Positions 4,278 to 42,842 of a DNA stretch of 53,838 bases are shown in pieces (within the stretch, counting starts at the first letter, position 1; the number at the start of each line of letters is the position of its first letter). The notes under the pieces are model-generated. The model did no database searches. It saw nothing but the letters and a program-made list of their open reading frames with translations, and had not been told where the DNA came from. A program made the translations under genes and the position numbers. The stretch is from Anaerolineae bacterium (lineage in GTDB: Bacteria > Chloroflexota > Anaerolineae > S016-19): assembly GCA_027016315.1 (NCBI GenBank), contig JALWAP010000283.1:1-53838 (forward strand), written 5' to 3'.

Positions 4278-6011
4278 ATGAACTTAGACAAAAGACTGCT
4301 TCGGGAAGCATCACGGGTTCGGTTGGAATTTACCATGACCGTGTCGCTGGGGTTCCTCGGCGGCATACTGACCGTGCTCCAGGCCCGGTATTTCGCAAAG
4401 CTCGTCAACGGCGCTTTCCTGGGAAAGTTACCGCTTAGCGCTCTCTGGGGAACGGTAGAGCTGATCATCGGTGTGATACTGCTCCGATCGATCGTCCTGT
4501 GGGCGAGCGAGGTTTCTGCCGCAAGGATGGCCGGAGTCGTCAAACAAGAACTCAGGGACAGGTTGTTCTCTCACATCCTGAAGCTCGGACCTGCTTACGC
4601 TCACAGTGAACGAACCGGCGAGCTGACCAACACCGCTGTAGAAGGAATCGAGGCGTTGGACGCGTATTTCAGCCAGTACATCCCCCAGCTTGCCCTGGCG
4701 GCGCTGATTCCGCTGACGATATTCATCTTCGTGCTGACCCGGGATCGCCTATCCGCGTTCGTGCTGCTCGTCACCGCCCCTATGATCCCGATCTTCATGA
4801 TGCTGATCGGAAGCATAGCCGACTGGCTCACGCGCAAGCAATGGAACACGTTGAGCCGCATGAGCGCGCATTTCCTGGACGTCCTACAAGGCCTCACCAC
4901 GCTGAAAATATTGGGCAGGAGCAAAGAGCAAACGCGCGTAATCGCCGAAATAAGCGACAAGTTCCGCCGGACCACTTTGGGCGTGCTCAGGGTGGCGTTC
5001 CTGTCGGCGCTGGTCCTGGAACTCGTTGCGACGATAAGCACGGCAATCGCCGCTGTGGAAATCGGGCTGCGGTTGCTGTACGGGCACATGGAATTCGAAC
5101 AGGCTTTCTTCGTGCTGCTGCTGGCCCCGGAGTTCTACCTGCCGCTGAGGCTCCTCGGAACAAGATTCCACGCGGGGATGTCAGGTGTGGCCGCCGCCAG
5201 GAGGATTTTCGAGGTGCTCGAGACGCCCGTGCCGGAGCCGCCAGCTACGGTTCTGCCGCATGTCCCTGCCGATCTCAGGTTCGACGTAAGCTTCACGAAC
5301 GTGCATTACGCCTACGAAGACGGCAAACGGCCCGCCCTAAAAGGCGTCTCGTTCGAGATCCTCGAGGGGAGCAAAACAGCGCTGGTCGGGCCCAGTGGCG
5401 CTGGGAAGAGCACCGTAGCGAGCCTGCTTCTGAGGTTCATATCGCCGGACGAAGGCGAGATACTCGTCGGTGGCATCCCGCTGAGAAACCTTCCGGTGGA
5501 AGGATGGCGGGAAAAAGTTGCGTGGGTTCCGCAAAACCCCTACCTTTTCCACGGCACGGTGGCAGACAACATCAGGCTCGCCAGGCCAAACGCAACCGAG
5601 GATGAGGTGAAGCGAGCAGCGGCCCTGGCACACGTGAGCGAGTTCATCCCCGAATTGCCGCAAGGCTACGACACCATCGTGGGTGAAAGGGGAGCAAGAT
5701 TGAGCGGAGGTCAGGCGCAGCGGATCGCGCTCGCAAGAGCGTTCCTCAAAGACGCACCATTCCTGATCCTGGACGAAGCCACGTCTAACCTCGATCCCGA
5801 AAACGAGGCCCTGATAGAGGAAGCAACGAAGCGACTGATGGAAGGTAGAACGGTGCTGATCATCGCCCACAGGCTGAGCACCGTGATGGACGCCGACAGA
5901 ATCGTCGTCCTTTCCGGCGGCAAGGTGCGGGAGATCGGAACGCACGAGGATCTGCTGTCGCACGGTGGAATCTACGCCCGCATGGTGACTCTCTACGGAG
6001 GTGCCGCATGA
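4278..6011 (+). CDS. cydD: ABC transporter (fused permease/ATPase) for cytochrome bd assembly, thiol-reductant exporter
   Basis: 577 aa with a six-TM domain and an ABC domain: Walker A GPSGAGKST, signature LSGGQAQR, Walker B FLILDEA. Sits directly after cydAB. Confidence 0.9.
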   Translation: MNLDKRLLREASRVRLEFTMTVSLGFLGGILTVLQARYFAKLVNGAFLGKLPLSALWGTVELIIGVILLRSIVLWASEVSAARMAGVVKQELRDRLFSHILKLGPAYAHSERTGELTNTAVEGIEALDAYFSQYIPQLALAALIPLTIFIFVLTRDRLSAFVLLVTAPMIPIFMMLIGSIADWLTRKQWNTLSRMSAHFLDVLQGLTTLKILGRSKEQTRVIAEISDKFRRTTLGVLRVAFLSALVLELVATISTAIAAVEIGLRLLYGHMEFEQAFFVLLLAPEFYLPLRLLGTRFHAGMSGVAAARRIFEVLETPVPEPPATVLPHVPADLRFDVSFTNVHYAYEDGKRPALKGVSFEILEGSKTALVGPSGAGKSTVASLLLRFISPDEGEILVGGIPLRNLPVEGWREKVAWVPQNPYLFHGTVADNIRLARPNATEDEVKRAAALAHVSEFIPELPQGYDTIVGERGARLSGGQAQRIALARAFLKDAPFLILDEATSNLDPENEALIEEATKRLMEGRTVLIIAHRLSTVMDADRIVVLSGGKVREIGTHEDLLSHGGIYARMVTLYGGAA

Positions 6012-7798: not shown

Positions 7799-8317
7799 TC
7801 AATCCAACCTGGCGTCGCAGATCTCCCTGTACGGGCAATGGGCGCACTTTGCGGGGTTGGAATGTTGCGGTAGCGGAGCCGCGGTCGTAGAAGCCTCTCT
7901 GATCTCCTCCAGCAGCCTAAGCAGATTGTCCCTGGACTTTTCGTCGTACTCGATCTCGAACTCCCGATCCTGATAGCGCAACACGCCGTAAGGCGGAGCG
8001 TGTCCCGAACTCTCCTCCACCAGCAAGCAGTACGCCAGAAGCTGGAACCGGTGGGCACGGTAAGGTTTCCTGGGAGCGCGTCGGCTCTTGATCTCCACCG
8101 GGATGAGCACCCCACCCCGCTGTATCAGGTAATCCGGCTTCCCAACGAGCATGTATCGTTCACTCACGATCGCCCCGTGCGGAGTCCCCATTCCCACGTC
8201 CTCGTATACGATCCGGCCGGCCGGAAGCCCGCTGCGTCGTCTTTGACCTGCGGAAACTCGCAGCAACGCAAGCCCCAGAGCGAAAATCGCCAAAGCGAGG
8301 ACTATCAGCAGAGACAT
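7799..8317 (-). CDS. Membrane-anchored PD-(D/E)XK nuclease core, Cas4/DUF83-like (lacks the N-terminal Cys motif)
   Basis: 172 aa counted from ATG 8317. N-terminal hydrophobic helix MSLLIVLALAIFALGLALL, then GKPDYL, PVEIKS (ExK), FQLLAY (QhxxY) and C-terminal CAHCPYREIC (CX2CX5C). GGGAGGTGA (stop plus SD) lies immediately upstream. Confidence 0.8.
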   Translation of the reverse strand: MSLLIVLALAIFALGLALLRVSAGQRRRSGLPAGRIVYEDVGMGTPHGAIVSERYMLVGKPDYLIQRGGVLIPVEIKSRRAPRKPYRAHRFQLLAYCLLVEESSGHAPPYGVLRYQDREFEIEYDEKSRDNLLRLLEEIREASTTAAPLPQHSNPAKCAHCPYREICDARLD

Positions 8318-8318
8318 T

Positions 8319-8984
8319 TCACCTCCCGCAGTTGCACGGCGTGATGAGGATAGCGGCTCCTTCCGGATTCCACTCCCTGAACCACCTGGCATCCCCGGGG
8401 GCGAGCCTTATGCAGCCGTGAGAAGCAGGCTCCCGGCCAAGCGACTCGGCACCCATGTACACTTTCTTGCCGTTCACCATGCGGTACGGAAGGCTGTGGA
8501 TGAGGAACGTTCCGCCGTGCCTCACGAAAAGCAGCCAGCCGTCGTCGGCGTAAGAGCCATCGACGCCCACGAACGTGCCGTAAAACTTCCCTATGCGGCC
8601 TTTCCAGAATGGGGTTTCACTCACGTGGGGGACTCCGGTGCTCACCGGCATTTCCCTCAAAATCTTCCTGCCGATCCCCACCAGCATCACCTGGCGGCTC
8701 TGGCACACCACCACCCACTTGCCGCTCATGTCGAGCCGGTACTCCTTGGCTTTCTCGAGGCACAACTGCATATCCTCGTCCCGGACGCCGTACGTGGGAG
8801 ATGGGAACGGGGTCGGCGTTGGAGCGCTCGTAGCCGTAGGCGCAGGAGACAAAACTTCGACGCTGACTGTCGGAAGCGGTGCAGGGGTACCAGTCGGCCC
8901 GCCCAAACGGCGACCGCCGGTGCAAGAGGTCAGCAACAGGAGGAGCAAGAGAGCGATCCAACCGACTCTGGACACGGACTTCAT
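8319..8984 (-). CDS. L,D-transpeptidase (YkuD domain) lipoprotein
   Basis: 221 aa counted from ATG 8984. Signal peptide with an LLLLLLTSC lipobox-like Cys, a Pro/Thr linker, and the catalytic motif SHGCIRL. Confidence 0.85.
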   Translation of the reverse strand: MKSVSRVGWIALLLLLLLTSCTGGRRLGGPTGTPAPLPTVSVEVLSPAPTATSAPTPTPFPSPTYGVRDEDMQLCLEKAKEYRLDMSGKWVVVCQSRQVMLVGIGRKILREMPVSTGVPHVSETPFWKGRIGKFYGTFVGVDGSYADDGWLLFVRHGGTFLIHSLPYRMVNGKKVYMGAESLGREPASHGCIRLAPGDARWFREWNPEGAAILITPCNCGR

Positions 8985-9235
8985 ATCGCCCCGACCGATA
9001 CCATCAGCCAGACCACGGCGAGCAGCAGTGCAAGGGCGATCAAGATCATCGCCGCTTTTCGGGCGATTTCGCCATACATCACCGCCTTGCCATGCGCCCG
9101 ATGGACCGCTGTCCCGCGGGAAAGGTCTTCCAAGTTCTGCGGGTCGATCCCGCGCACGCGATGAAACCACCACGCGCGCCTGCAGTACACGTATTCGCCG
9201 ATCTCACTTGCGCTTATCAGCCTATTTCCGCCCAT
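8981..9235 (-). CDS. 84-aa miniprotein: Cas4-type N-terminal helix/Cys motif plus a C-terminal transmembrane helix
   Basis: ISASEIGEYVYCRRAWWFHR resembles the Cas4/DUF83 N-terminal motif. The C-terminus AAMILIALALLLAVVWLMVSVGAI is hydrophobic. There is an ATGA overlap with the downstream gene and a 14-nt overlap with the upstream gene. Confidence 0.6.
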   Translation of the reverse strand: MGGNRLISASEIGEYVYCRRAWWFHRVRGIDPQNLEDLSRGTAVHRAHGKAVMYGEIARKAAMILIALALLLAVVWLMVSVGAI

Positions 9236-9860
9236 TCATCCGCTCTTCGAACTCGGCCAAAGCCTGGCGGAGCTTCTGCTGCTGACTGATGACCGTCAGC
9301 TCGCCTCTGGTTCGCTCCATGACGGAACGGAGGATATCGGTATGCCGCCTCAACCCGCCGGTGATCGCATCGGGGAAATCGATGGTCACCAGGTAGCTGT
9401 AGATATCGTCCATGGCGTCCAGCATCTCCTCCGCCTTTTCCAGCTTGCCCCTGCGAACCAGGTCCAGCGCGTGCCTGCGCAATTCGGTAGCAGCCTCCGA
9501 CAACCCGCCCAGGTACGTGGCGTCCGGCACCCCGAGATCCTCAGGCGTAGGTATCGGATCACCCCTGACGATGGCAAAGGTGATCGAGGCTTCGGCCAGC
9601 TCTTTCAGGGAATCCTGGGTGTATCCGGCGTAGTAAATGGTGGGATGGTCCTCCAGGTCCCTGGTCATGGTCTTTGCCGCTTCGGAGGCTTTGCGCAACA
9701 GTTCTTCCGCCTTGTCGAATTCCTCCCGATGGATAGCCCTGATCGTGTGTGCACAAAACCTGATCAGCTCCCTCGAGCGCTGAAGCGCAATATCTCTCGC
9801 CTGGTTCTGGACTTCTATCCTGCTCCGAATTCTTTCAACGATGCTTTCCAGTTTTTCCAT
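9222..9860 (-). CDS. Translin/TRAX-family protein (C3PO-like)
   Basis: 212 aa counted from ATG 9860, with RBS GGGAGGA 9 nt upstream. All-helical. Motifs LKELAEA and YLGGLSEAATELRR align with TRAX QEYVEA and YLLGVADLTGELMR. Confidence 0.75.
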   Translation of the reverse strand: MEKLESIVERIRSRIEVQNQARDIALQRSRELIRFCAHTIRAIHREEFDKAEELLRKASEAAKTMTRDLEDHPTIYYAGYTQDSLKELAEASITFAIVRGDPIPTPEDLGVPDATYLGGLSEAATELRRHALDLVRRGKLEKAEEMLDAMDDIYSYLVTIDFPDAITGGLRRHTDILRSVMERTRGELTVISQQQKLRQALAEFEERMNGRK

Positions 9861-9888: not shown

Positions 9889-9918
9889 ATTATAGACGCC
9901 ATCTGAGCCCATGAGCAA
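9889..9918 (-). promoter_or_regulatory. Candidate promoter, TTGCTC-N18-TATAAT, for the translin operon
   Basis: TATAAT is the reverse complement of 9889-9894 and TTGCTC the reverse complement of 9913-9918. It lies about 30 nt upstream of ATG 9860. Confidence 0.4.
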
Positions 9919-10109: not shown

Positions 10110-10475
10110 ATGGGCGGGAAAAGATTTCGATCCTCACCGAAGCAAGATGAATCCTGGTTTAGAGAACTGTGGACGGATCTACGGCTGGCGCTTTCTTTGC
10201 TGTTCGACAGCAGGGTGCCGCTCCTTTACAAAGCCATCATACCGCTGGTATGGGTGATCTATCTGCTGTTCCCATTAGACCTAATCCCTGACGTGATCCC
10301 GATCCTTGGCGAAATGGATGATCTGGCTCTGCTCGTGCTCGCGGCGCAGCTACTCGTTCTGCTCTCGCCAAAGTACGTGGTCGAGGAGCACCTGAGGAAG
10401 ATTCGTGGAGAAAGGCCTACCGGGGGCAAGGACGAGGGCGACGTGATAGATGGCGAATGGCGCGTGATGGATTAA
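10110..10475 (+). CDS. DUF1232 (YkvA-like) small membrane protein
   Basis: 121 aa. The motif LFPLDLIPDVIPILGEMDDLALL is typical of the family. RBS GAGGTGG precedes ATG 10110. Confidence 0.75.
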   Translation: MGGKRFRSSPKQDESWFRELWTDLRLALSLLFDSRVPLLYKAIIPLVWVIYLLFPLDLIPDVIPILGEMDDLALLVLAAQLLVLLSPKYVVEEHLRKIRGERPTGGKDEGDVIDGEWRVMD

Positions 10476-11791
10476 TCCACCACCTCGCCATACAGGTCGT
10501 ACTCCGAAGAATCCAGGACCTTAGCCCTCACCATGGTCCCTGCGGCAATGGTCTTGTTGAGGTACACGAGCCCGTCTATCTCCGGCGCGTCCCTGTAAGT
10601 TCTTCCAAAACTGCCCTCCTCATCGGCGCCTTCCACGAGCACGGCCATCTCTCGCCCGACCTGAGCGGCGTTTCTCTCGGCTGATATCTTCCGCTGAAGC
10701 TCCATCAAACGGCCGTACCGCTCGTGCTTGACCTCTTCCGGAACCTGATCCGGCATCTCCGCGGCAGGAGTGCCGGGCTCCGGGGAGAACTCGAACGCGC
10801 CCACGTGGTCGAACTTGATCTCCTCGAGAAACTCCAGCAGCGCACTGAATTCCTCCTCCGTTTCCCCGGGGAATCCAACGATGAACGTCGAGCGCAAAGC
10901 AATGTCCGGCATAGCCTCTCTCAGGCTCCCGATGGTGAAAAGCACGTCGTCGATCCTGTTCGGGCGCCTCATCCGCTTCAACACCTCCGGGTGCCCATGC
11001 TGAAGCGGGATGTCCAGGTAGTGACATACCTGATCGTGCCTTGCCATCGTCTCGATCAAAGCAGGGGTCACGTGCGACGGATAAGCATACATGATCCTGA
11101 GCCATCGAAGCTCCGGAACAGCCTCCAATATCGCCTCCACCAGGCGGGCGAGGCCATCGGACATGCCAAGATCGCGTCCGTAATCGGTGGTATCCTGGGC
11201 CACAAGCACGATCTCCTTCGCTCCGAGCCCGACAAGCTCCATCGCCTCTCGCACGATGTCAGGCATTGGGCGACTCTTGAGCCTTCCCTTGAAACTGGGG
11301 ATCGAGCAGAAAGCGCAGTTTGCGTTGCAGCCGTCGCTGATCTTCAGATACGCCGTGCCACCGACGACGCGGCTCCTGGGGAAAGGGCCTTTCCAAAGCC
11401 GATCCGGCTCGCCGAGGAGTTCGTACTTAGCATGGCGGCGATCCCGCAGTTTGGAGAGTATCCTCGGAAGCTCCGACCAACGGTAAGTTCCCAGAAGCAC
11501 ATCGACTCCCGGCACACCCGACTCGATTTTCTCGGGATTTCTCTCCACCATGCACCCGGCAGCCACCAGCGTCTGCCCAGGACGTTTGATCGAGGATAGC
11601 GCGCCGAGGGCCTCGAGCGCTTCCTTTTGAGCCGATTGGAGGAAGCCACATGTGTTGACTATCAGCACATCGGCTTCGCTGGGGTCGGCAACGCCACGGT
11701 AGCCAGACCGCTCCAACAGCATCGCCATCGCCTCGCTGTCCACCAGGTTCTTGGGGCAACCCAGGCTGTGGAGGTAGTACTTCCCTTTCAT
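10472..11791 (-). CDS. rimO: Ribosomal protein S12 methylthiotransferase (radical SAM, MiaB family)
   Basis: 439 aa counted from ATG 11791. LGCPKNLVDSE N-terminal domain, radical-SAM CNANCAFC motif and a C-terminal TRAM domain. The long upstream extension of the track ORF overlaps rodZ and is rejected. Confidence 0.9.
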   Translation of the reverse strand: MKGKYYLHSLGCPKNLVDSEAMAMLLERSGYRGVADPSEADVLIVNTCGFLQSAQKEALEALGALSSIKRPGQTLVAAGCMVERNPEKIESGVPGVDVLLGTYRWSELPRILSKLRDRRHAKYELLGEPDRLWKGPFPRSRVVGGTAYLKISDGCNANCAFCSIPSFKGRLKSRPMPDIVREAMELVGLGAKEIVLVAQDTTDYGRDLGMSDGLARLVEAILEAVPELRWLRIMYAYPSHVTPALIETMARHDQVCHYLDIPLQHGHPEVLKRMRRPNRIDDVLFTIGSLREAMPDIALRSTFIVGFPGETEEEFSALLEFLEEIKFDHVGAFEFSPEPGTPAAEMPDQVPEEVKHERYGRLMELQRKISAERNAAQVGREMAVLVEGADEEGSFGRTYRDAPEIDGLVYLNKTIAAGTMVRAKVLDSSEYDLYGEVVD

Positions 11792-12738
11792 TGGGTCGGC
11801 GTGACCGTGACGGTAGAAGTGACCGTTGTGGTGATCGTCGGCGTGCTCGTGGGAGGCATGGGTGTGGCGGTGGCTTCGATGAGCTTCCCATCCTGACGAG
11901 TCCACACCATGTGGATTACCTCGCCCGGCTTTCCAAAAGGAGCGTACTCCCTGCCATCCACTTTCACATTGACGTGCCCGGCGTTCCCCACGACAAGCTC
12001 CATCTTTCTCTGCGCGACCCACTTCGCGTGTGTCCCGTCGGGCAGCGTGCTCGCCTGCTTCGTTTCTCCGTCGGCCACTACCTGTATCCACGAACGATCG
12101 CCGACGATGTCTATTTCGAGGACGATGGGACTGGGAGTAGCCGTCGGCGTACTGGTAAAGGTAGCCGTCGGGCTTGGAGTAGCGGTCGACGGCACAGGGG
12201 TGGCCGTGGCGGGTGCCAACGTGGGAGTGGGAGCTTCGGTAGGAGCCGCAGTCGGGTGCCTGGGAACAGCAATCGGCTTCAAATGGATGGAAGGCAAGCG
12301 AACATTCCCGAAATCCGGTGGAGGGAACCTGCCTGACTTGACCAAAAACCACCCGGCCAGAGCAAGCAATGCCATTATCACTATGAGGGCGGTAACGGCT
12401 CGCGACCCGTGTCCAAACGAATCCCGGAGGCGGACTTCGATAGGGCCCCTTCCGAAGAGTTCCTCATCCGTGCCGATGTGAATTTCTGGTTCCTCCCCCG
12501 GGGAAGCGGCGGATTTGAAAATTTTCAGCATTTCGTTCACATCGAGTCCAAGGAACCCCGCGTAGTTACGTAGAAAACCTTTTGCGGTAACGAAGTCTGG
12601 GAGCTCTTCGAACCTCTCCTCCTCCAGCGCCCGCAAGTATTTTGGTCTGATGCGAATTTCCTCAGAGACCTGCTCCAACGTAAGCTTTTTCTCTTCTCTC
12701 GCTGCGCGAAGCCGATCCCCCAGGCCCGATTCACTCAT
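11788..12738 (-). CDS. rodZ: RodZ-like cytoskeleton/HTH protein (XRE HTH, TM segment, Pro/Thr linker, DUF4115-like C-terminal domain)
   Basis: 316 aa counted from ATG 12738. LGDRLRAAREEKKLTLEQVSEEIRIRPKYLRALEE HTH region, then a TM helix. ATGA overlap with rimO. Confidence 0.75.
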   Translation of the reverse strand: MSESGLGDRLRAAREEKKLTLEQVSEEIRIRPKYLRALEEERFEELPDFVTAKGFLRNYAGFLGLDVNEMLKIFKSAASPGEEPEIHIGTDEELFGRGPIEVRLRDSFGHGSRAVTALIVIMALLALAGWFLVKSGRFPPPDFGNVRLPSIHLKPIAVPRHPTAAPTEAPTPTLAPATATPVPSTATPSPTATFTSTPTATPSPIVLEIDIVGDRSWIQVVADGETKQASTLPDGTHAKWVAQRKMELVVGNAGHVNVKVDGREYAPFGKPGEVIHMVWTRQDGKLIEATATPMPPTSTPTITTTVTSTVTVTPTQ

Positions 12739-12781
12739 CAAAACGCGCCTCCCCTTCTTTTTGGCGAAAAACCGCCTCCCT

Positions 12782-12810
12782 AATATAATCGGAAACCCTT
12801 TTCGTGTCAA
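12782..12810 (-). promoter_or_regulatory. Promoter, TTGACA-N17-TATATT
   Basis: The hexamers are the reverse complements of 12805-12810 and 12782-12787, upstream of rodZ. Confidence 0.55.
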
Positions 12811-14379: not shown

Positions 14380-15399
14380 TTACGGACGAATGATGACTGG
14401 CGTGCCTATGTCTGCCCAGTAGTACAGCTCTTTAGCATGATCGGTTCTCAGCATGACGCAACCAAAAGTGATCTTCCTGCCCAGAAGCCCCGCCCAAACG
14501 ATGCTGCCATCCGGATTGATCGGCTGGCCGTGTATTCCGTTCTCCGTGGAACCGGCCCAGTAGATCCCAAGCCAGTAGGGCATCCATATCCTCCACCTGG
14601 AACCGTAAGCGTTCAGGACTTTGCTCTGTACGTGGAAGACGCCGGTGCGGGTTGGGTAGCCATACCTGCCGGTGGATACCACCCATGTGTGGAGCAGTTT
14701 TCCATTCTGGTAAACGTACATCCTCTGCTGGGAGATGGAGACCACAATCTTCTTCCCGCCTCCGGAGGGTGAAGGTGGAACCTGCGTCTGGCTCCCCGGT
14801 ATGACGAGTACTTGCCCGACGTAAATGAGCGATGGATTTCTGATGCCGTTCGCGGATGCAATTCGGGCTACGGTGGAGCCGTACCGGTAAGCTATGGAGG
14901 CGAGCGTGTCTCCGGGGCGAACCACGTAAGTCCTGGAAGTGCTCCCGGAACCGGGATTCGATGGCGTCGGTGAGGCGTTCTTCCCCGGTATCTTTAGCCT
15001 CTGCCCAACGTAGATTAGGTTGGGATTCGAGATACCGTTCGCCGCTGCCAGTGATAGCATCGAAACCCGATACCGCAATGCGATGATCGTCAGGGTATCC
15101 CCTGGCCTCACGACGTACACGCTGCCGGAAGTCGAGCCGCCGCTGCTGGAGCCAGGGATCAGCAGCCTTTGGCCTATCCAGATGAAATTCGGATTTGCCA
15201 GATGGTTCGCTGCTACGAGCCGGGAGAGGCTCACTCCGTAGTGCGCGGCTATTGAGCTCAACGTCTCGCCGGGTTTGACGATGTGCACACCGCCGGTGGC
15301 AGCGTTTGCGTGCCCCGTGAATCCAATCCCAGCAGCGATAGAAACCAGCAGCGTCAATGTGATCAACAGTAGTGCGAATTTCTTTCTGCTTGCGGACAT
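14380..15399 (-). CDS. Secreted protein with three LysM domains and a C-terminal L,D-transpeptidase (YkuD) domain
   Basis: 339 aa counted from ATG 15399. Signal peptide, three V(K/R)PGDTL..IA..Y LysM units, and a C-terminal YkuD-like region ending ...KITFGCVML. Confidence 0.85.
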   Translation of the reverse strand: MSASRKKFALLLITLTLLVSIAAGIGFTGHANAATGGVHIVKPGETLSSIAAHYGVSLSRLVAANHLANPNFIWIGQRLLIPGSSSGGSTSGSVYVVRPGDTLTIIALRYRVSMLSLAAANGISNPNLIYVGQRLKIPGKNASPTPSNPGSGSTSRTYVVRPGDTLASIAYRYGSTVARIASANGIRNPSLIYVGQVLVIPGSQTQVPPSPSGGGKKIVVSISQQRMYVYQNGKLLHTWVVSTGRYGYPTRTGVFHVQSKVLNAYGSRWRIWMPYWLGIYWAGSTENGIHGQPINPDGSIVWAGLLGRKITFGCVMLRTDHAKELYYWADIGTPVIIRP

Positions 15400-15533
15400 G
15401 ATATCCCCCTGGATGACTTCTGAGAAACCGGAAGACGACTTTCCTCGGTTCGTCGGTCGCTGCGTTTGTGCAGGAAAGCTTCCGCGTATGATATACTCGA
15501 ATCCCATAAAACTATACACGAAGAAGGTGGAGA

Positions 15534-16103
15534 ATGTCAAGGGGATGTAAGGATGGCGGCGATGGAGTTTGGAAGGTGGTTTCCAGCACCCTGGTTCTGG
15601 ACCGTAGCCCGTGGATGAGAGTGTGGGATGAGCATGTGGTACTCCCCAACGGTGCGGAGATCCGCGGATACATCCGCACCGAAAGCAGATCTTTTTCGAT
15701 GTGCTTCGCCGTGACTGGAGATAGCCTTGTCCCTATAACGAGGCAGTACAAGCATGGCGTTGGGAAGGAGTTCTACGAGCTCCCTGCAGGGTACCTGGAA
15801 GAAGGCGAATCGCCATTGGAATGTGCACGAAGGGAGTTGCAGGAGGAAACGGGGCTTGGGGGTGGCAAGTGGGAGCATCTGGCGAGCCTTGTCATCAATT
15901 CGAACCGGGGCGATGCTCGCGCTCATCTGTTCCTCGCTATAGGCGTCGAACCGGTTTCCGAGCCGCACCTGGACGAAACCGAGGTGTTGGAGATCGAGTA
16001 TTTCTCCCCAGAGGAGCTGCGTAAGATGATCTGGGACGGCGAGATAGAGTCGTTGGCGACGGTGGCGAACATCTTGCTCGCCTGCGCTCGAATGGGAGAG
16101 TGA
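15534..16103 (+). CDS. NUDIX hydrolase (ADP-ribose pyrophosphatase-like)
   Basis: Nudix box GYLEEGESPLECARRELQEETG. Confidence 0.85.
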   Translation: MSRGCKDGGDGVWKVVSSTLVLDRSPWMRVWDEHVVLPNGAEIRGYIRTESRSFSMCFAVTGDSLVPITRQYKHGVGKEFYELPAGYLEEGESPLECARRELQEETGLGGGKWEHLASLVINSNRGDARAHLFLAIGVEPVSEPHLDETEVLEIEYFSPEELRKMIWDGEIESLATVANILLACARMGE

Positions 16104-25084: not shown

Positions 25085-25122
25085 ATGCCTCGAGCGCGCG
25101 CCAGAACGCCGCTCTTTCTTTC

Positions 25123-25269
25123 ACCTTCTCCCATCCGGACTATACCGTCGGCTCTGGCTTTGCCTGAACGGCGCACCAGATCAGCCCCCGCAGGGGCTCG
25201 CGGGCTCGGTGCTACGCACCCTACCGCCGGTCGGGAATTGGCCGAAAAGCCTCACCCTGCCCCGAAGGT
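25123..25269 (-). promoter_or_regulatory. FMN riboswitch (RFN element) aptamer
   Basis: The minus strand reads ACCTTCGGGGCAGGGTG...AATTCCCGACCGGCGGTA...AGCCCGCGAGC...GCCGACGGTATAGTCCGGATGGGAGAAGGT. This matches the conserved RFN blocks of the B. subtilis ribD leader, with P1 formed by ACCTTC/GAAGGT. Confidence 0.9.
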
Positions 25270-25310
25270 CTCATATTCGGTTGTCTTCCAAAGAATTTGC
25301 TCTGTCCCAA

Positions 25311-37598: not shown

Positions 37599-37714
<116 letters not shown>

Positions 37715-42454: not shown

Positions 42455-42537
42455 GCCCCCGTGGTGGAATTGGTATACACGGCAGGTTGAGGGCCTGTGC
42501 CCATAAGGGCGTGCCCGTTCGAGTCGGGCCGGGGGCA
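42455..42537 (+). tRNA. tRNA-Leu (anticodon GAG), class II with a long variable arm
   Basis: Manual fold: acceptor GCCCCCG/CGGGGGC, anticodon stem-loop GCAGG-TTGAGGG-CCTGT, variable arm GCCC-ATAA-GGGC, T arm GCCCG-TTCGAGT-CGGGC. CCA is not encoded. Confidence 0.9.
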
Positions 42538-42541
42538 CTGA

Positions 42542-42651: not shown

Positions 42652-42724
42652 TCCTCGGTAGCTCAATTGGCAGAGCAGCCGGCTGTTAACCGGCGGGTTG
42701 TAGGTTCGAGTCCTACCCGAGGAG
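42652..42724 (+). tRNA. tRNA-Asn (anticodon GTT)
   Basis: Manual fold: acceptor TCCTCGG/CCGAGGA, D arm GCTC-AATTGGCA-GAGC, anticodon arm GCCGG-CTGTTAA-CCGGC, T arm GTAGG-TTCGAGT-CCTAC. Confidence 0.9.
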
Positions 42725-42842
42725 CTATGCTGGGTCCGAGTTCCACTTCCCTTTTTCTATTATCCTCTTTACTTCCAGGCTCAATGGAGAGATGTTCCTC
42801 AAGCGTAGTTGGTGTATAATCCCTCCGGAGGCCGATCGAATC

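Follow-up and report, generated by a model that had tools for sequence, protein, structure and literature searches.

A candidate Cas4-family nuclease in two membrane-anchored pieces, often encoded next to a TRAX-like protein, in Chloroflexota

Four chained genes on the minus strand of a 53,838-nt contig from an Anaerolineae bacterium (Chloroflexota; GenBank assembly GCA_027016315.1, contig JALWAP010000283.1; the whole of this stretch is called the window below) probably encode a soluble TRAX-like, C3PO-type metal-dependent nuclease and a Cas4-family iron-sulphur (Fe-S) nuclease that consists of two membrane-anchored polypeptides, with a YkuD-type L,D-transpeptidase lipoprotein as a passenger. 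We give this reading a probability of about 0.72. The two Cas4 pieces are an 84-amino-acid (aa) protein, here named N84, and a 172-aa protein, here named the core; residue numbers follow the window proteins. The unit that is conserved between genomes consists of the two Cas4 halves, often together with TRAX, and its usual neighbours are housekeeping genes and not defence genes. An earlier note on this DNA had described the four genes as an operon, and its claims were followed up computationally.

The two pieces of the nuclease

The nuclease had been proposed to be a split Cas4, and the profile searches bear this out. The two open reading frames (ORFs) cover separate parts of the Cas4 model TIGR00372: N84 matches positions 2-47 (E 9e-5) and the core matches positions 62-179 (85.5 bits, cut-off 65). 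N84 also matches positions 2-44 of PDDEXK_1 and is recognised by the Cas4 models of PADLOC. On its own it stays under the family cut-offs, with 22.4 bits for TIGR00372 and 16.9 bits for PF01930, and the N84 profile alone returned only noise from the PDB. The core reaches 52.6 bits against PF01930 (cut-off 22.7).

All catalytic motifs of the PD-(D/E)XK nucleases (GxxxH, D, ExK and QxxxY) are present, divided over two polypeptides and invariant in 72 pairs. N84 carries the first Fe-S-type cysteine, C18 (9182-9184), and G41xxxH45 (H45 at 9101-9103) in its cytoplasmic helical part, and A9, C18, W22, G41 and H45 are invariant across 72 orthologues. As summarised in PMC13621843, the GxxxH histidine of SSO0001 is a ligand of the catalytic metal. 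The core carries D62, E75-x-K77, Q92xxxY96 and C158-x2-C161-x5-C167, and these eight acidic, lysine, glutamine, tyrosine and cysteine residues are invariant both across 30 and across 72 homologues. The four cysteines of the pattern C…CX2CX5C are thus all present and invariant, with C18 in N84 and C158, C161 and C167 in the core.

A transmembrane (TM) helix is predicted in each piece, in both cases at the end where the protein is cut. In N84 it is a C-terminal tail anchor at about residues 60-83 (8987-9058), and in 72 orthologues the hydrophobic segment stops 0-9 residues (median 3) short of the C-terminus. In the core it is an N-terminal signal anchor at residues 2-21 (8255-8314); in the 72 pairs the hydrophobic segment begins at residue 0-7, and a stretch rich in K/R comes after it. 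In both helices the K/R-rich flank is the one next to the nuclease part. Instead of the single soluble polypeptide of ~160-220 aa that is typical of the Cas4 family, we therefore find two genes with a TM helix in each product.

A profile of fused pairs placed C18 and G41xxxH45 of N84 opposite the N-terminal cysteine and GxxxH of the type I-C Cas4 (8D3L), of Pcal_0546 (4R5Q) and of the Geobacter Cas4-Cas1 fusion. An AlphaFold2 (AF2) model of an artificial fusion of N84 and the core had a pLDDT of 86.3 and a pTM of 0.80. In this model a long helix (35-81) starts in the GxxxH region and extends into the first TM segment and, after a turn, a second helix (85-112) completes a hairpin. The top Foldseek match of the model was the full-length Cas4 8d3l_J, with 262 aligned columns, followed by SSO0001, Dna2, MGME1, ACE1 and AdnAB.

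Spread of the pair and the slot between its halves

We scanned one genome per GTDB species for the core, which was present in at least 586 Chloroflexota species representatives, and the 80 best loci were kept for study. Neighbourhoods were counted in 83 non-redundant loci, in which the small ORF was sought with an iterated profile. All named loci among the best 80 belong to Chloroflexota, namely to Anaerolineae, Caldilineae, Thermoflexales, Chloroflexia or Herpetosiphon. Homologues of the core numbered 667, with lengths of 164-188 aa throughout the best 120. N84 was found upstream of the core and on the same strand in 73 of the 83 loci; in three of the ten without it a contig end truncates the locus. 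A word-indexed search with the 84-aa protein found only five relatives. When 1.84 billion representatives were compared exhaustively with the N84 profile, with no word index, 946 matches came up. Of these cluster representatives 303 reached E<=1e-10, and every one of the best 150 has a length of 70-133 aa. With hundreds of relatives of such uniform length, the 84-aa ORF, which the earlier note had counted as a gene, is therefore a real gene family.

No fused, unsplit Cas4 with a TM hairpin was seen among the best 120 core matches, the best 150 N84 matches or 74 pairs. The longer N84 matches have N-terminal extensions or are a two-TM variant that still has a separate core downstream. In this variant (L094 924-1756, L093 2501-3060) the small piece is 107 aa long with two hydrophobic segments, and the 170-aa core has its own TM helix and overlaps by 4 nt. 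In 48 of the 74 pairs at most 40 nt separate the N84 stop from the core start, and 14 pairs overlap. In locus L090 the N84 ORF (2696-2932) was missed by the public gene call, which left a 334-nt 'intergenic' gap. Under-annotation of small ORFs probably hides the split in many records.

When only the window is considered, a Cas4 domain interrupted by another gene resembles insertional disruption, and the two ORFs might be pseudogene fragments broken by insertion of the YkuD gene, or a product of frameshift or assembly error. We regard this as hardly credible, since 73 independently assembled loci show the identical split with junctions of differing geometry, both pieces have invariant catalytic, cysteine and TM features, homologues of the small ORF run to hundreds with the narrow size range given above, and the inserted gene is absent from most loci. 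A decaying or mis-assembled Cas4 gene is refuted by the conservation of both pieces.

The gene between the halves in the window encodes, as the earlier note had recognised, an L,D-transpeptidase lipoprotein. The 221-aa protein matches YkuD (PF03734) with 40.3 bits (cut-off 23.4) and has a signal peptide, the lipobox LTSC (C21 at 8922-8924), a Pro/Thr-rich linker and the catalytic motif SHGCIRL at 188-194 (H189, C191). The YkuD proteins in this slot are orthologues, with identities of 40-76%. A second L,D-transpeptidase of the window (14380-15540, minus strand), with three LysM domains, is only 26% identical to it.

The earlier note had held that the operon hard-wires the nucleases to peptidoglycan cross-linking, and the distribution of the YkuD gene does not support this as a general property. 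YkuD lies between the halves in six of the 83 genome-scan loci, and the other 77 have the Cas4 pair without it; among the 74 pairs it separates the halves in seven. The proposed survey of other Chloroflexota thus gave a divided answer: the pair of N84 and core recurs, often with TRAX, but YkuD is confined to one subclade. In all, 13 loci carry this YkuD subfamily. Both halves flank it in eight, the window and L003, L029, L033, L034, L075, L088 and L090, and the latter seven have the identical order of TRAX, 84-aa gene, YkuD and core, which upholds the view of the four genes as a conserved, tightly coupled block. In five others (L086, L087, L089, L091 and L092) TRAX and YkuD are kept and both halves are gone. 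YkuD and the nuclease can thus each persist without the other. Since one half alone was never seen in the 13 loci, the joint loss supports a mutual dependence of N84 and the core.

Other genes occupy the same slot elsewhere. A gene for a ~210-aa HEAT-like cytoplasmic protein stands between the halves in 8-9 loci; it gave only weak matches, to HEAT repeats, PDS5/Cnd1 and DVU0298_fam. It is found in one Anaerolineales subclade: in L017, L018, L019, L032, L042, L043 and L067 (~4280-4990 in each), in two copies in L039 (3643-4940), and in L012 upstream of 653. In L063 (3623-4195) the slot holds a gene for an FMN-reductase-type flavoprotein. The slot therefore tolerates unrelated genes. In L020 (2092-2403) and L061 (4629-4995) the halves are separated by gaps of 307 and 365 nt without an ORF, in which tblastn at 1e-3 found no YkuD remnants; these gaps may be deletion scars, because both loci sit in a clade with YkuD-carrying relatives. 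The YkuD-containing clade shares ACACCGTGACCGACCC(T/G)CG just upstream of the core start. In a tree of TRAX all YkuD loci fall into one clade, interleaved with loci that have no YkuD. The simplest history is one insertion of YkuD into an ancestral TRAX-N84-core operon, followed by repeated loss of YkuD or of the Cas4 pair.

We also considered that the L,D-transpeptidase is a functional partner, an exported enzyme that contacts the outer tips of the TM helices and couples the state of the wall and the nuclease in either direction. The orthologous YkuD has been kept in the slot in eight loci at deep divergence, and in the window it is translationally coupled on both sides. In all 13 loci TRAX comes directly upstream of it despite dissimilar outer flanks, and every homologue with an examined context (nine of 32 close homologues from protein databases) is likewise downstream of TRAX. 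The outer ends of the TM helices, however, are only 0-9 residues long and offer little docking surface, a cytoplasmic HEAT-like protein or a flavoprotein can take the identical place, 77 of 83 loci have the pair without YkuD, the five loci that lost both halves show that each works alone, and the adjacency to TRAX is explicable by dependence on the upstream promoter. This partnership is distinctly unlikely. Very unlikely, too, is the wider idea that TRAX and the two-piece membrane Cas4 form an undescribed Chloroflexota membrane nucleic-acid machine for which, in the subclade of the window, YkuD is a real partner that senses or modifies the wall via the TM tips. Possible substrates of such a machine would be entering DNA, membrane-attached chromosome ends or RNA, and a true partnership of YkuD would amount to a direct wire between peptidoglycan state and nuclease.

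The TRAX-like protein, the operon and its surroundings

The first gene of the block had been called TRAX/translin-like, and this assignment probably holds. The best solved relative of the 212-aa protein is AfTRAX, the TRAX homologue of Archaeoglobus (3zc1, E 1.5e-22), and NEQ131 of Nanoarchaeum (NeTrax, 5jr9) is matched at E 9e-13. The protein falls just under the cut-offs of NCBIfam NF011160 (277 bits, cut-off 291) and of Pfam Translin PF01997 (24.7 bits, cut-off 25.9). Its residues E87, E90, E122 and E126 are invariant in 45 Chloroflexota homologues. They show the TRAX-type pattern ExxE…[D/E]xxxE and correspond to E82/E85/D117/E121 of NeC3PO, which bind two catalytic metals (PMC5100593). No TM or hydrophobic segment was found in the TRAX-like protein. 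Of the earlier idea that the nucleic-acid enzymes are tied to membrane anchors, the part on the Cas4 halves therefore stands, each having a TM helix, and the part on TRAX does not.

TRAX lies directly upstream of the Cas4 halves in 41 of the 83 loci. The Chloroflexi are the one bacterial phylum with a translin-superfamily gene, and archaeal TRAX relatives cut single- and double-stranded RNA and DNA (PMC5100593). An archaeal TRAX has been reported in an operon with SepRS (PMC5424206). Translin together with Cas4 is not mentioned in the literature searched.

The coordinates of the block are summarised in Table 1. On the sequence we confirmed all positions of the four minus-strand ORFs between 9860 and 7799, which are chained by overlapping or abutting codons as had been described. 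The TRAX-like and 84-aa ORFs share a 14-nt overlap, the 84-aa stop overlaps the YkuD start codon in the sequence ATGA (8984-8981), and a single base separates the YkuD stop from the core start. A GGGAGG immediately precedes the YkuD stop, ahead of the core ATG (…GCGGGAGGTGAAATG…). Another Shine-Dalgarno GGGAGG, at 9877-9872, lies 11 nt ahead of the TRAX start and downstream of the promoter-like site. No terminator-like site was found in a scan of the four-gene block. From the sequence, the four genes probably form one transcription unit.

Table 1. Genes of the block and the promoter-like site upstream of it, in window coordinates.
Feature	Coordinates	Strand	Details
TRAX/translin-like gene, 212 aa	9222..9860	minus	start ATG 9860, stop TAG 9224-9222 (read from sequence)
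84-aa gene N84, N-terminal piece of the split Cas4	8981..9235	minus	ATG 9235-9233, TGA 8983-8981
YkuD L,D-transpeptidase lipoprotein gene, 221 aa	8319..8984	minus	ATG 8984-8982, TGA 8321-8319
172-aa core gene, catalytic piece of the split Cas4	7799..8317	minus	ATG 8317-8315
Promoter-like site	9889..9918	minus	TTGCTC 9918-9913, 18-nt spacer, perfect TATAAT 9894-9889

The claim that one promoter-like site precedes the set holds in part. The motif with its perfect TATAAT is there, but a consensus sigma-70 scan, for which about one such site per region is expected by chance, made no call at it because its -35 hexamer fits only three of the six consensus positions. The site is plausible as a real promoter, with no statistical support from the scan. 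An alternative ATG at 9902 would, if used, fall within this promoter, which favours the start of the 212-aa protein at ATG 9860.

Clustering of the ORFs that neighbour the 83 loci gave a recurrent same-strand order: SSB, DUF3467, TRAX, N84, core, (HisS), NAD kinase (NADK), a ~174-aa protein and RecN. NADK, the ~174-aa protein, which has a weak B-box zinc-finger-like match, and RecN were each found in 33-39 of these loci. SSB and DUF3467 genes precede TRAX in L001 (4356-5074) and in ~24-27 other loci. The common context thus consists of housekeeping genes, two of which, SSB and RecN, belong to DNA metabolism. In the window, by contrast, none of the genes that elsewhere surround the block occurs within the 53.8 kb; here two genes for ABC exporters border the block on one side and a DUF1232 gene in divergent orientation on the other. 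Having left the SSB…RecN surroundings, the block therefore behaves as a self-contained unit.

A defence role was weighed against this context. The absence of cas genes and of a CRISPR array from the window, as first noted, was corroborated: the array scan of the window was empty, no cas families occur in the gene tables that carry Pfam annotation, and the neighbour families of the 83 loci include no recurrent cas-gene cluster. A CRISPR adaptation module, with adjacent cas1/cas2 and an array, was not found. With PADLOC-DB v2 the two Cas4 pieces gave only generic Cas4 and DruK matches, and TRAX and YkuD gave none. A known anti-phage defence system was rejected, as no complete PADLOC system matched, and so was a phage origin, as no relatives were found in viral contigs. 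Together with the literature searched, in which the combination is undescribed, these results agree with the earlier view that it lies outside described pathways and defence systems.

The block might still serve innate defence or surveillance of DNA entry, with a membrane-tethered Cas4-type exonuclease and a TRAX endonuclease that degrade incoming linear DNA or RNA. Membership in the Cas4 family and the likeness to DruK-type PD-(D/E)XK models would fit such a role, as would an active site that, in the model, sits on the cytoplasmic side of the membrane; roles in defence or repair are suspected for solo-Cas4 proteins (PMC5704561), and the Cas4-family protein ACE1 cooperates with another nuclease in defence (PMC12094033). 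We nevertheless consider it unlikely. All named loci of the 80 kept are Chloroflexota, and the solo-Cas4 of Chloroflexi is reported to be monophyletic (PMC5704561). The genes in conserved synteny have housekeeping functions (SSB, HisS, NADK and RecN) and do not form defence islands, mobile-element genes did not show up in the vicinity, the search of viral contigs gave no copies, and no complete known defence system was matched.

Elsewhere in the window a 626-aa ORF (10472-12352, minus strand) encodes a methylthiotransferase of the RimO/MiaB type. As the domains of this ORF start only at residue 191, its real start must lie far downstream of GTG 12352. The upstream part of this ORF overlaps a RodZ-like gene (11788-12810, minus strand; HTH_25 and RodZ_C). 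An FMN riboswitch (25119-25273) and a SAM riboswitch (37600-37712), both on the minus strand, and the plus-strand genes for tRNA-Leu(GAG) (42455-42538) and tRNA-Asn(GTT) (42652-42725) are ordinary chromosomal content.

Proposed mechanism and comparison with known nucleases

Since N84 would contribute a metal ligand and one of the four cluster ligands, with all others on the core, we infer an obligate two-subunit enzyme. The TM helices at the cut, with positive charges on the nuclease side, predict that N84 is oriented N-in/C-out and the core N-out/C-in. Fe-S clusters are assembled in the cytoplasm. In the mechanism that we propose, the two TM helices would pair antiparallel as a membrane hairpin that is cut at its outer loop. 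The halves would meet on the cytoplasmic face, where the Fe-S cluster and the catalytic metal site would be completed across the subunit interface. The product would be an obligate heterodimer with its active site ~15 residues from the membrane. By homology to Cas4, AddB and Dna2, it may cut single-stranded DNA ends or resect them in the 5'-3' direction. Speculatively, the TRAX-like nuclease could act jointly with it on nucleic acid at the membrane, and the neighbours SSB and RecN may point to housekeeping work, in repair or turnover and not in defence. As the probable role we favour the processing of nucleic-acid ends on the cytoplasmic side of the membrane. YkuD, we speculate, would have been acquired once in one subclade and kept through its dependence on the operon promoter, without being a functional partner.

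Several points weigh against this proposal. How the pieces assemble, that they bind a cluster, where they lie in the membrane and what they cut are all predictions. The sequence matches of N84 to Cas4 are individually weak (E 9e-5 to 0.19), and the AF2 model comes from an artificial fusion with an unpaired alignment in which MAFFT partly misaligned the TM region. Seven loci (L023, L025, L030, L036, L046, L053 and L073) have an intact core (DEK, QY, CCC) but no N84 within 5 kb. In these core-only loci the core keeps its catalytic and cysteine residues and its TM helix; N84 is therefore encoded elsewhere, or the core is able to work alone. The synteny with SSB and RecN is absent from this window and could elsewhere be plain inheritance of gene order. 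Finally, the passenger idea does not by itself account for why YkuD is adjacent to TRAX in 13 of 13 loci despite scrambled outer flanks and why it is retained at 40-50% identity. This constant adjacency is the single argument for a functional tie, and dependence on the TRAX promoter may account for it.

If the two-piece enzyme is as its sequence suggests, it would be a natural Fe-S nuclease that has its cluster and metal ligands on two gene products, which two membrane helices seem to hold together. In the literature searched, such a two-product architecture with a composite site is undescribed for Cas4 or other PD-(D/E)XK enzymes, and it would offer a ready-made split-enzyme design. For annotation, it means that many Chloroflexota records hold a ~170-aa 'CRISPR-associated protein Cas4' that is without the first cysteine and the histidine, next to a ~80-aa partner gene that is unnamed or, as in L090, uncalled. 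The sole bacterial homologues of TRAX/C3PO gain a conserved genomic partner, and solo-Cas4 gains a testable location and partner. The YkuD gene adds a caution: perfect translational coupling with an unrelated gene can mean hitch-hiking in an operon and not a shared function.

Compared with known systems, the slot transpeptidases share with other YkuD L,D-transpeptidases (PF03734) the catalytic domain, the SHGC(I/V)R motif, export via a lipobox or signal anchor, and the Pro/Thr-rich linker. They differ in that this subfamily was found only directly downstream of TRAX (13 of 13 loci) and, in eight loci, between the halves of another enzyme. The TRAX-like protein resembles C3PO/TRAX (3ZC0/3ZC1, 5JR9) in a translin fold that is recognisable by sequence and in the four catalytic acidic residues, but it is bacterial, has no RNA interference context and is co-encoded with a Cas4-family nuclease.

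The 'iron-staple' PD-(D/E)XK nucleases AddB/AdnAB, Dna2, MGME1 and Exo5 have the same fold, with one cysteine upstream and three downstream of the nuclease core, and Foldseek found them with the fusion model at E 1e-5 to 1e-3. They are soluble, single-chain and usually fused to a helicase, whereas the window enzyme is split, predicted to be membrane-bound and without a helicase. ACE1, a structural neighbour of the model (9iac), is likewise a solo Cas4-family nuclease with a second co-encoded nucleic-acid enzyme (PMC12094033). Its partner, however, is pAgo and not TRAX, and ACE1 is soluble, unsplit and found in a defence context.

The closest comparison is with Cas4 itself (TIGR00372/PF01930; SSO0001 4IC1, Pcal_0546 4R5Q, 8D3L). 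The RecB-like fold, GxxxH, D, ExK and QxxxY are the same, as are the one N-terminal and three C-terminal cysteines, and the core alone scores above the NCBIfam cut-off. In contrast to Cas4, the window enzyme has a cut that falls after the GxxxH helix and before the first strand, which predicts a composite cluster and metal site; it has a TM helix on each piece at the cut, and it has no cas genes or CRISPR array nearby and an operonic link to a TRAX-like nuclease instead. Judged by its sequence, it is a Cas4-family nuclease in every catalytic respect, yet it is not a single soluble polypeptide and has no CRISPR context. Hudaiberdiev et al. (2017) described a monophyletic solo-Cas4 group in 'many Chloroflexi' (PMC5704561). 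That paper does not mention a split, a membrane helix or translin, and it states that all Cas4 members contain four conserved cysteines, whereas the annotated ~170-aa Chloroflexota protein has three. The solo-Cas4 group of Chloroflexi described there is very probably this split family.

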